Shown here piece after piece: positions 36,708 through 42,312 of a stretch of 64,000 nucleotides of DNA. This DNA comes from Octopus vulgaris (taxonomy: Eukaryota). The notes under the pieces were generated by a model, which was given only the letters and a program-made list of their open reading frames with translations, did not search any database and was not told the DNA's origin. Where the stretch lies: positions 28,024,001 through 28,088,000 of the forward strand of contig OX597837.1 of assembly GCA_951406725.2 (NCBI GenBank). The letters run 5' to 3'. The position numbers were made by a program, and so were the translations under genes. Within the stretch, counting starts at the first letter, position 1, and each line of letters opens with the position of its first letter.

Positions 36708-36811
36708 AAAAATATGGAACAATTCACAAATTTGTGTGTCATCCTTGTGCAGGGGTCATGTTAATCTCTGTAACGTTCCACTTTTAGTATATGTACAGTC
36801 GAAGCGATTGT
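36708..36811 (-). pseudogene. U6: U6 snRNA pseudogene (near full length)
   Basis: Minus strand tcgcttcgactgtacatatactaaaagtggaacgttacagagattaacatgacccctgcacaaggatgacacacaaatttgtgaattgttccatattttt aligns with U6. ACAGAGA box is kept, but the AGC triad reads AAC and there is a small deletion. Confidence 0.9.
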
Positions 36812-37124
36812 AGACATTACTGAAATTTTGTATTAGGATTTTTGCTATTTTGAACTTCTGTGCATGGCCTGAACTTTATATCTAGTTATTTGCACTTTAC
36901 AGTTTACATTTGATATTTGGGATTATACGCAGCAATCTTCGTATCTGGCGCTTGGTATTCTGTTGTAGTGATTTGGGACGGATTGTCTTCTTTTTGCAAA
37001 TCTGCTATACGCGAGTTAATTCAGCACTTAGGGGGATGGTATGTGCTGCATTAGACACACATACCGCTCTCTCTCTCTCTCTCTCTCTTACTCTTTCTTT
37101 CTCTCTTTCTCTCTCATATATATA

Positions 37125-38374: not shown

Positions 38375-39121
38375 TTTGGTACTGCTTATTGTTTCGTAAT
38401 AAACGCTTCTTCCTTTCCCACCCACTACTACTTCACATGCCTCGGTGCAGTTCATTTTCCCTTCTGCCCCACACCCCAACACCGCTGCGGCTGCTGCTGT
38501 TGCTGCTGCAAGCAACCCATCCTGCAAGCAGCGATTTCTAAGAGTAGAAAAGACGTTGTCAGTTTTTCTACATCTCACCTCCATCACCTTCCCTGCTACT
38601 GACATGCCTCGTTTACTTCACCTTATCCTCCTCTTCATCCTCCTCTCCCAAATATATTTTTATGCCACCAGCGACCTTCCCTGTTAGTAGAAATTTTATA
38701 CCAGTTCCACGCACGCATGCACACACACACACATACATACATATACACACATTCATTCATTCTTAAAGATAACACTAAAATCGACCTTAAGTACAGCCGT
38801 TCTTGGAGTCGTAGGCGCTATATTAACATCACGCATCAAAGACAATGCGTTTGTAATCCAAGAGTAAGAAGGTACCAGAAAAACACCTTAGAAACAAGAG
38901 ACAGTTAAGGCCCCGGTGCCCCAAGATGCAACCCGTAAATGTCGATAACCTATTTCTGTGGAAGACATCCCACCTGTTCAGCAGCCACTCAAAAAATGTC
39001 ATCAATGCACTATCCCCACTGAGACACCACATATTCGCCAAAACAGGATGTATTCCACTGAAATTAGGTAAATAATCCTTCGAACAGACAGTCGGCAGCG
39101 ACGCCTGCTGGGTTCAGCTAC

Positions 39122-39164
39122 TCTGCATTGATAAAGGGCAAATACCCTGAAACGTGTCTGCAGA
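39122..39164 (+). ncRNA. Type I hammerhead ribozyme, U3:A8 variant, at the tip of a long rod
   Basis: tctgca-TTGATAA-AGGG-caaata-CCCT-GAAAC-gt-GTC-tgcaga; predicted cleavage after 39158; stem I extends to 39077/39209. Confidence 0.78.
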
Positions 39165-39477
39165 TGCCTGACCAGCAAGGGGAAGCGGCTGACCTCCCCT
39201 GTTCGAAGGTTATAATGGACACAGGTTCGTGTGTCATATAGCTAGCTAGAGGCGATGGCCTCTTGGAGCTAATCAACGGCAGCTTTCGTCCTATATTTAT
39301 GGACTGCCATATTAGCTTGGCGATAACTGTTAATATATAATACCATTCGGTAAAAAGATGGGATAAATATCGAAACCCTGCCCTTTTATTGAATACATAA
39401 GTAAAGGCCACGACAAGGGGTTTCGGAAAAACATTCCCATTAAAACTTTTACCAAACATAAACAGAGCCCATAAATG

Positions 39478-39897
39478 GGCGCAGGAGTGGCTGTGTGGTA
39501 AGTAGCTTGTTTACCAACCACATGGTTCCGGGTTCAGTCCCACTGCGTGGCACCTTGGGCAAGTGTCTTCTACTATAGCCTCGGACCGACCAAAGCCTTG
39601 TGAGTGGATTTGGTACACGGAAACTGAAAGAAGCCCGTCGTATATATGTATATATATATATGCGTGTGTATGTTTGTGTGTCTGTGTTTGTCCCCCTAGC
39701 ATTGCTTGACAACCGATGCTGGTGTGCTTACATCCCCGTCACTTAGCGGTTCGGCAAAAGAGACCGATAGAATAAGTACTGGGCTTACAAAGAATAAGTC
39801 CCGGGGTCGATTTGCTTGACTAAAGGCGGTGCTCCAGCATGGCCGCAGTCAAATGACTGAAACAAGTAAATAAAGATAAATAAAGATAAAGATAAAG
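39478..39897 (+). mobile_element. SINE family A, full length
   Basis: Sequence identity to family A. Confidence 0.92.
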
Positions 39898-41191: not shown

Positions 41192-42312
41192 AATCTATCT
41201 GGTAAACTTGCAAGTTCCCTCTTCCAAAGTTCACTTGCCGTGACGAAAGATACTACTCCAATACTGTTCTGACCTCGTCTACAGAATTCATACTTTTTCG
41301 TCCAAATGATTTTGAAGACTGCAGAATAAATGATAATCAGATGGGGCAATGTCCAGCAAATATTGTAAGTGGGGCGTCGTTTCCCATTTAATCTACTCCA
41401 GCCTTTGGAATGTCATCCTCGCTGTATGTGGCCGGGCATTATCCTGGTACAATAACAACTTTCGTCTTGAAATCAAAGCTGATCGTTTTTCTTCTAGGGC
41501 TGAATTAAGCCGCCTCAAGTTGCTTACAGTTGATTTCGTTTGTTATCGTTTGGTTTGGGTTAAAACATTCAAAGTAGACTAAACCTTTCATATCCCATCA
41601 AACAAATATCACCTTATGTGGGTGAAGACCTTCTTTTACCTGGAGTGCCAGTGTTTCTCCTTTCCCTACCCACTGTTTTCGGCGCTTGAGGTTTTTAAAG
41701 GGAACCAATTTCTCGTCACCAGTCACTATTCGGTTCAAAAAAAGGTTCATTCGAGAGACGTGACAGTAAAGAAAAACACACGTTCACTCTCTGTGCACGA
41801 TTAGACTCGGTAAGTTTCTGAGGAACTCATTGACTAAATTTGCTGATTTTTTCGAAGGCACGCAGGTGAATGGTTAAATGACCAAATCCAAGCTTCTCTA
41901 CTAGTTCTTCAACAGTTACGATTGGCTTTTGTTCCACCAGAGTTTGCAGGATATCCTCGTCGAGTCCTACAGATCTTCTAGGACGAGGCTCGTCTTCTAG
42001 GCTGTAGTTTCCGGGTCGGAATTTCTGGAACCACCGTTGACATTGCCTTACGCTTATTGTCCGATCCTCATATATAGCATTAATGTTCCTCGCACTTTCC
42101 GTTACGCTGTTGACTTTACTGAACTCATAAAGCAAAATATGCCGAATTTGCTGCTTTGTCACTTCCATTATAGCTTTGAAAAAATAACTGCACTCTTCAA
42201 AACGTGTACTAAGAATAAATACAAGTTGATGCAGGTAGTATATCCCGCCCCACTCCGACATTTGGCTTATGCAATTGAAAAAACCCCGCATTATTTATGG
42301 GATGATCCAATA
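41192..42312 (-). mobile_element. Decayed mariner (DD34D-type) transposon, one TIR retained
   Basis: ATG at 42168: MEVTKQQIRHILLYEF...QRWFQKFR.GNYSLEDEPR; VTGDEK, QDNARPHTA and DIAPSDYHLF motifs in broken frames; TIR tattggatcatcccataaataatgcgg ending in TA at 42312. Confidence 0.92.

Follow-up and report, generated by a model that had tools for sequence, protein, structure and literature searches.

We find that a protein-free insert in the genome of Octopus vulgaris is a truncated copy of a dispersed repeat family (hereafter family 1). This family is quite probably a retrozyme mobilized by Penelope-like elements (PLEs), that is, a protein-free repeat of 361 to 365 nt with a predicted hammerhead ribozyme, copied by the reverse transcriptase (RT) and GIY-YIG endonuclease of PLEs. 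The insert lies within a 64-kb stretch of genomic DNA (64,000 nt in full; hereafter the window), and its features are collected in Table 1.

A first-pass annotation, made from the letters of the window, had proposed that the insert bears a type I hammerhead whose core reads UUGAUAA, with U3:A8 in place of the C3:G8 pair. This motif is confirmed by the sequence and by a strict type I descriptor. The descriptor matches nowhere else in the 64 kb, and nowhere in 200 block shuffles. The motif has the features of the type: a core with its 3:8 pair, GAAA, A15.1-U16.1, H17, and three helices with the structure open at helix I. No minus-strand hammerhead was found in the window by the descriptor scan, and Rfam models gave no hammerhead match in the window, either at the gathering score or up to an E value of 10. 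The Rfam miss is probably explained by the variant core and the 2-bp stem III. Note that the window copy carries ACGUGU in place of the family palindrome ACAUGU; the palindrome is thereby lost, and the stem III self-duplex is predicted at −3.1 kcal/mol (versus −4.6 kcal/mol).

Table 1. Features of the retrozyme copy and its host remnant, in window coordinates.
Feature	Position	Strand	Basis or remark
Host remnant, left part: decayed non-LTR retrotransposon, zinc knuckle and restriction-like endonuclease motifs	38790..39045	+	paralogues, translations
5'-truncated retrozyme copy	39046..39336	+	291 of 361 nt; spans unit positions 91 to 20
Interrupted rod prolonging stem I	39075..39213	+	fold; cross-family two-sided changes
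Predicted type I hammerhead	39122..39164	+	sequence, descriptor scan, covariation
Stem I, 6 bp	39122-39127/39159-39164	+	sequence
Core UUGAUAA	39128-39134	+	U3 = 39128, A8 = 39133
Stem II, 4 bp, 6-nt loop	39135-39138/39145-39148	+	sequence
GAAA	39149-39152	+	sequence
Stem III element ACGUGU	39152..39157	+	2 bp, 2-nt loop
Predicted cleavage site	after C39158 (GUC ends 39158)	+	sequence
GACAC/GUGUC hairpin	39218..39235	+	fold; kept in sister family
Fixed 3' end A	39329..39336	+	41/109 pieces end at unit positions 18-20
Host remnant, right part	39333..39455	+	contiguous with left part in paralogues

The insert had been described as splitting an older element without encoding protein, and this is borne out: paralogues of the host remnant run across the junction uninterrupted, and the insert holds no protein-like frame. 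The host repeat has 39 paralogues with identities of 69 to 85%. Two of them (L037 and L038) are exactly contiguous over the junction, and the right flank of the insert is matched by 4 of 11 host paralogues in blastn. The sequence ATAT at 39333-39336 is common to the element end and the target. Because paralogues are uninterrupted at the junction, we conclude that the window insertion occurred without target duplication; none was seen when host paralogues were compared over it. From its identity to paralogues (about 70 to 75%), we take the host remnant to be old and a mere landing site of the insert. We presume it, from its motifs, to be of the R4/Dong type; tblastn of a REL-type frame (from locus L215) against the window gave a weak match (E = 0.014). 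A second, SINE-like insert at about 39470-39870 splits the same remnant, which resumes beyond it at about 39908 and extends to about 40300.

The insert had also been read as a monomer. It is instead a truncated insertion with a single ribozyme, 70 nt short of the 361-nt unit. The best other copies are about 95% identical to it (40 scored of 3005 first-look candidates). Lacking these 70 nt, a second ribozyme and the intact palindrome, the window copy is probably inert.

The family to which it belongs is numerous. In the assembly searched (2.8 Gb, 227 contigs), a 29-nt core pattern has at least 211 exact matches, with 0 in the control, and copies are dispersed over many contigs. The unit of 361 to 365 nt has no protein-like frame and a GC content of 0.42 to 0.44 (41 to 44% in individual units). 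In other copies the repeat extends past both ends of the window insert: a natural 1.2-mer gives a period of 361 nt, and tandem arrays of about two to three units (2.3 to 3.2) at L068, L165 and L166 give cut-to-cut periods of 364 to 365 nt, with a hammerhead in each tandem unit. No long arrays were seen among 75 loci, and 4 of 109 pieces contain two or more cut sites. At least 211 exact cores, together with arrays that reach about three units, show the element to be multi-copy, both dispersed and tandem. The retrozyme reading is supported by a multi-copy unit without open reading frames (ORFs), its tandem arrangement and a covarying type I hammerhead. By hand count, family 1 makes up about one fifth of the first 100 matches listed for a looser U3:A8 pattern; by extrapolation from these sequence matches, there would be some 700 to 800 intact family 1 cores. 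Within alignment A1, subfamilies have mean identities of 97.5% (14 rows) and 91.8% (35 rows), and, judged by these identities, family 1 activity is fairly recent.

The U3:A8 pair had been presented as a special feature of the insert, a view that we do not retain. It has been published for Schistosoma (PMC4209133), and several octopus families share it: the loose U3:A8 pattern has 3772 matches in the genome versus 298 in the control. Within family 1 it is nearly invariant. With positions 3, 7 and 8 left free, 235 matches were obtained, and U3:A8 occurred in 98 of the first 100 listed and C3:G8 in none; it is also present in all 48 distinct rows of the family 1 alignment, about half of which were picked by a pattern that fixes U3:A8. 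A search with the canonical core and the same stem III gave 409 matches (control, 7) and revealed a sister family with C3:G8. Its unit of 354 to 355 nt is about 61% identical to family 1 over the whole length. It occurs in tandem at L122/L123, and further copies lie at L126 and L119; it has the same hairpin at end B (see below) and the same two-ended insertions. A third related family has U3:A8 at L210/L211 and C3:G8 at L167. Because this third family holds both pairs, these sequences suggest two or more switches of the 3:8 pair within the superfamily. Of the 80 family hammerheads scored, 72 have a palindromic stem III, in six spellings, which fits the dimer model of PMC4209133.

Two further hammerhead contexts were encountered. 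Another abundant, AT-rich family of minimal U3:A8 hammerheads (L215-L219) has an ACUAGU stem III and ends at (TA)n, and no PLE frame was seen near these motifs within the stretches examined. At L210:1822-7705, two 235-nt direct repeats of the third hammerhead family enclose a Tx1/L1-like LINE of about 5.4 kb. The hammerheads there, 5.65 kb apart, were considered as PLE termini and rejected, as they flank this LINE and not a PLE.

Covariation is evident between families. Alignment A2 comprises 22 sequences from family 1, the sister family (family 2) and three diverged copies. In it, 93.1% of cells are paired versus 79.6% after shuffling, and 21 of 37 pairs show two-sided change, with the qualification that the structure was hand-drawn from the same sequences and that cross-family changes amount to few independent events. 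These changes include five of six stem I pairs and three of four stem II pairs, and the 3:8 pair itself is CG in 10 sequences and UA in 10. A2 uses 22 of 38 matches. Left out were 2 false matches, repeated tandem units, and copies with truncations, rearrangements or gaps. The pair count excludes the middle of the rod, because the families align there one column out of register. Within family 1 alone, two-sided change was found in 2 of 47 pairs, fewer than in shuffles (3.8).

As first delimited (286 nt), the insert folds at −103.8 kcal/mol (z = −4.3), and none of 200 shuffles folds as low. Across families, the rod shows two-sided change in five of eight outer pairs and three of six inner pairs. 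Whole units are predicted to form a rod plus a branched domain, with circular folds at z scores of −5.3 to −9.7, so that the description "rod-shaped" suits the hammerhead half and not the whole unit. Of three hairpins proposed downstream, the sister family retains gacac/gtgtc, at 91.7% pairing and with two-sided change at one pair. The pairing of ggcag with ctgcc at 39304 fared less well: of the four whole units folded, three (L004, L029 and L123) pair the ggcag arm into the 70 nt that the window copy lacks, and the partner motif is absent from that copy.

How the copies end points to the machinery that inserted them. We compiled 109 pieces at 75 loci, partly picked with bias, and a core-picked subset of 24 loci. 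Their 3' ends fall at one of two positions, A or B, in 96 of the 109 pieces (35 of 40 core-picked). End A lies 178 nt past the predicted cut and end B about 235 nt past it, some 57 nt apart. None of the 109 pieces has its 3' end within 10 nt of the predicted cut, a site that 77 of them cross, and the 5' ends are scattered. Head-to-head inverted pairs combine A with B in 24 of 28 cases (11 of 13 core-picked). Runs of (TA)4 or longer occur within 30 nt of 49 of the 109 ends, versus a background of 5.8%. Target duplications of 9 to 16 nt were called by a simple heuristic in about 10 of 44 single-piece loci, some AT-rich ones possibly by chance. The hairpin at B is common to family 1 and its sister, with 1039 matches (a few palindromes being double-counted) and 0 in the control. 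The 30 B-hairpin loci examined all belong to these families, two being so short that their assignment is tentative.

PLEs show the same tail architecture (10.1101/2021.04.23.441226), and their tail has been traced to two internal RT starts (PMC11167929). By analogy with the latter system, we infer that end A is a start of reverse transcription. The fixed ends and inverted A+B pairs suggest the Penelope "tail" footprint, as if Penelope-type retrotransposons were pasting the repeat. This footprint (5' truncation, inverted partner and tail) supports the use of PLE machinery, not PLE membership. It also tells against the "viroid-like" autonomy that the first-pass annotation had entertained. Viroids replicate from RNA to RNA with no DNA stage and often bear ribozymes on both strands, whereas this family has hundreds of chromosomal copies and, in the window, no hammerhead on the minus strand.

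Potential partners are present in the genome. A young intact PLE family (L200-L208; for example, L203:268-4960) has a 781-aa frame with RT and GIY-YIG domains, and its copies are 91 to 99% identical. Each of its terminal repeats, which are spaced by about 4.7 kb, carries a hammerhead with the U3:A8 core and ACAUGU stem III of family 1. The repeats end, next to (TA)n, at two points separated by about 33 nt, compared with a retrozyme tail of about 57 nt. Upstream of the RT frame, and overlapping it in the −1 register, lies a 479-aa frame for which no Pfam match exceeds the cut-off. We rejected the idea that PLE and retrozyme hammerheads cleave one another, as their stem I arms differ. The first-pass annotation had named a match to a Penelope LTR beforehand as the outcome that would count against it. 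None of 70 PLE-bearing loci has a PLE pseudo-LTR (pLTR) alignable to the unit, save for a neighboring retrozyme insert at two places. Of these loci, 30 belong to a single GIY-YIG family whose minimal hammerhead is different, 30 are Pfam GIY-YIG loci and 10 are larger stretches. The 30 B-hairpin loci and 17 further stretches likewise have no such pLTR. Retrozyme copies beside PLE fragments (L041 and L188/L209) were assessed as joined elements and proved to be separate insertions.

On the preferred reading, a tandem copy would be transcribed, and two hammerheads would pair via their palindromic stem III and cleave 3' of GUC; the unit-length RNA thus released would probably be closed into a circle. 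A Penelope enzyme would nick AT-rich DNA, and reverse transcription would begin at internal site A (178 nt) or B (about 235 nt past the cut), pass back over the cut site and stop at random. The window copy would have started at site A, run for 291 nt and landed in the old LINE remnant; the deficits named above would keep it from releasing a unit. The circle is the weakest step, because uncleaved tandem RNA would give the same cut-crossing pieces and the anole PLE does without cleavage in vitro (PMC11167929).

This leads to a competing account, in which a tandem array is read through and its uncleaved transcript serves as template, within the same family and with the same Penelope machinery, and the hammerhead is weak or just frees the RNA from host transcripts. 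We regard it as possible, if clearly less probable than copying from a cleaved unit. Genomic tandems exist, so the 77 cut-crossing pieces need no circle, and stem III has just 2 bp. Hammerhead cleavage is unneeded for insertion of a PLE in vitro, and unprocessed RNA is the main substrate of the anole PLE there (both PMC11167929); uncleaved tandem RNA could thus be a template. Among Xenopus retrozyme dimers, eight of nine showed no cleavage (10.64898/2026.07.22.740005). However, families about 61% identical maintain the core, stems I to III and the rod through compensatory change, as if cleavage and a closed fold were selected, and related retrozymes of coral, mussel and axolotl accumulate as circles (PMC7229834). 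Parts of the stretch occur in 19 of 24 public runs listed, under four organism labels, and none of these runs is recorded as RNA; the eight runs examined were contigs, in which ends, strand, level and circles are not visible.

Two other accounts would do away with the retrozyme. The repeat might be the pLTR of an autonomous PLE, its copies being 5'-truncated PLE ends. The insertion footprint is the same, the intact PLE shares the U3:A8 core and ACAUGU stem III, and Xenopus retrozymes are homologous to pLTRs (10.64898/2026.07.22.740005). Nevertheless, ORF-less tandems already largely refute this idea, and we consider it very improbable: upstream of copies lies the previous unit (in arrays of 2.3 to 3.2 units) and never, in 75 loci, a PLE frame in register, as unit joins unit. 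Inspection of ORFs of at least 100 aa revealed no PLE frame at any of the 30 B-hairpin loci, and none of the PLE families encountered has a pLTR with alignable similarity to the unit. An autonomous PLE has an RT and GIY-YIG frame between pLTRs, and the unit has none. Least probable of all, a LINE or DNA-level amplification would have spread the repeat as a SINE or satellite, its hammerhead being a relic. Variable 5' truncation, the target duplications at about 10 of 44 single-piece loci and the position of the window copy inside a LINE remnant would all suit it. Yet the poly(A) end is absent, there are two fixed ends with A+B inverted pairs, the copies are dispersed over many contigs with a covarying ribozyme, and the LINE host is old and merely the landing site.

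On its sequence features, the repeat probably joins the animal non-LTR retrozymes as a new member, and it is likely Penelope-mobilized. These were described by Cervera and de la Pena (2020) as ORF-less units of 170 to 400 nt with a type I hammerhead and a GC content below 45% (PMC7229834). Family 1 falls within the class limits of a 150- to 450-bp ORF-less unit with GC below 50%. The hammerhead in every tandem unit, the absence of LTR, PBS and PPT, and target duplications above 4 bp when present are properties of the family; the window copy has neither tandem units nor a target duplication. The nearest in size are Mytilus repeats of 350 to 390 bp. Tandem and dispersed copies, a lack of LTR, PBS and PPT, a highly paired predicted circle and co-occurring PLEs are all shared with the animal retrozymes (PMC7229834). 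In contrast to those, the octopus repeats combine a U3:A8 core with a C3:G8 sister family, and they are mostly truncated, dispersed pieces with arrays of at most about three units. Moreover, the retrozymes of PMC7229834 are known as circles, whereas this family is described here from genome sequence, and the accessible text of that paper has no account of two fixed ends and inverted pairs.

Vertebrate non-LTR retrozymes (Li, Clavereau, Pollet; 10.64898/2026.07.22.740005) are alike in being non-autonomous hammerhead repeats with dispersed monomers, for which PLE enzymes are proposed. Their PLE link is sequence homology to pLTRs, whereas ours is an insertion footprint, with no homologous pLTR found. 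The 35 species in the accessible text of that study include no mollusc. In Schistosoma mansoni, about 1,300 U3-A8 motifs are reported among Cercyon-related minimal hammerheads, which share with family 1 the U3-A8 swap, a short palindromic helix III and a dimer model (PMC4209133). Those are minimal PLE-type motifs, whereas here the stems have the canonical 6 bp (I) and 4 bp (II) and lie inside a long rod. Endonuclease-bearing PLEs resemble the family in 5' truncation, partial tandems, an inverted 5'-truncated partner, a tail between two RT starts and AT-rich targets; unlike them, the unit lacks an RT or GIY-YIG frame, and its tail is about 57 nt versus 30 to 40 nt (10.1101/2021.04.23.441226, PMC11167929). 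We found no description of a cephalopod retrozyme in the literature, with supplementary tables and repeat libraries outside the search.

PLEs have been proposed as carriers of animal retrozymes (PMC7229834; 10.64898/2026.07.22.740005). The fixed ends and A+B inverted pairs offer a mechanistic footprint for this link, and the footprint predicts exact RT start sites on the 361-nt RNA. The sister families are also a natural experiment on the 3:8 pair. It is conceivable, although unlikely as a whole, that the genome holds a matched set: circles of the sister retrozymes with a natural C3:G8/U3:A8 swap, and the young intact U3:A8 PLE copying the family 1 circle from two internal starts. If true, this set would give direct access to the proposed retrozyme-PLE partnership.

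Elsewhere in the window, a U6 snRNA copy lies at 36708-36813 on the minus strand (80.5 bits) with a 3-nt deletion just 3' of ACAGA, and is probably a pseudogene. Fragments that, from their motifs, we take to be of a Mariner-like transposase lie at about 41200-42300, also on the minus strand.
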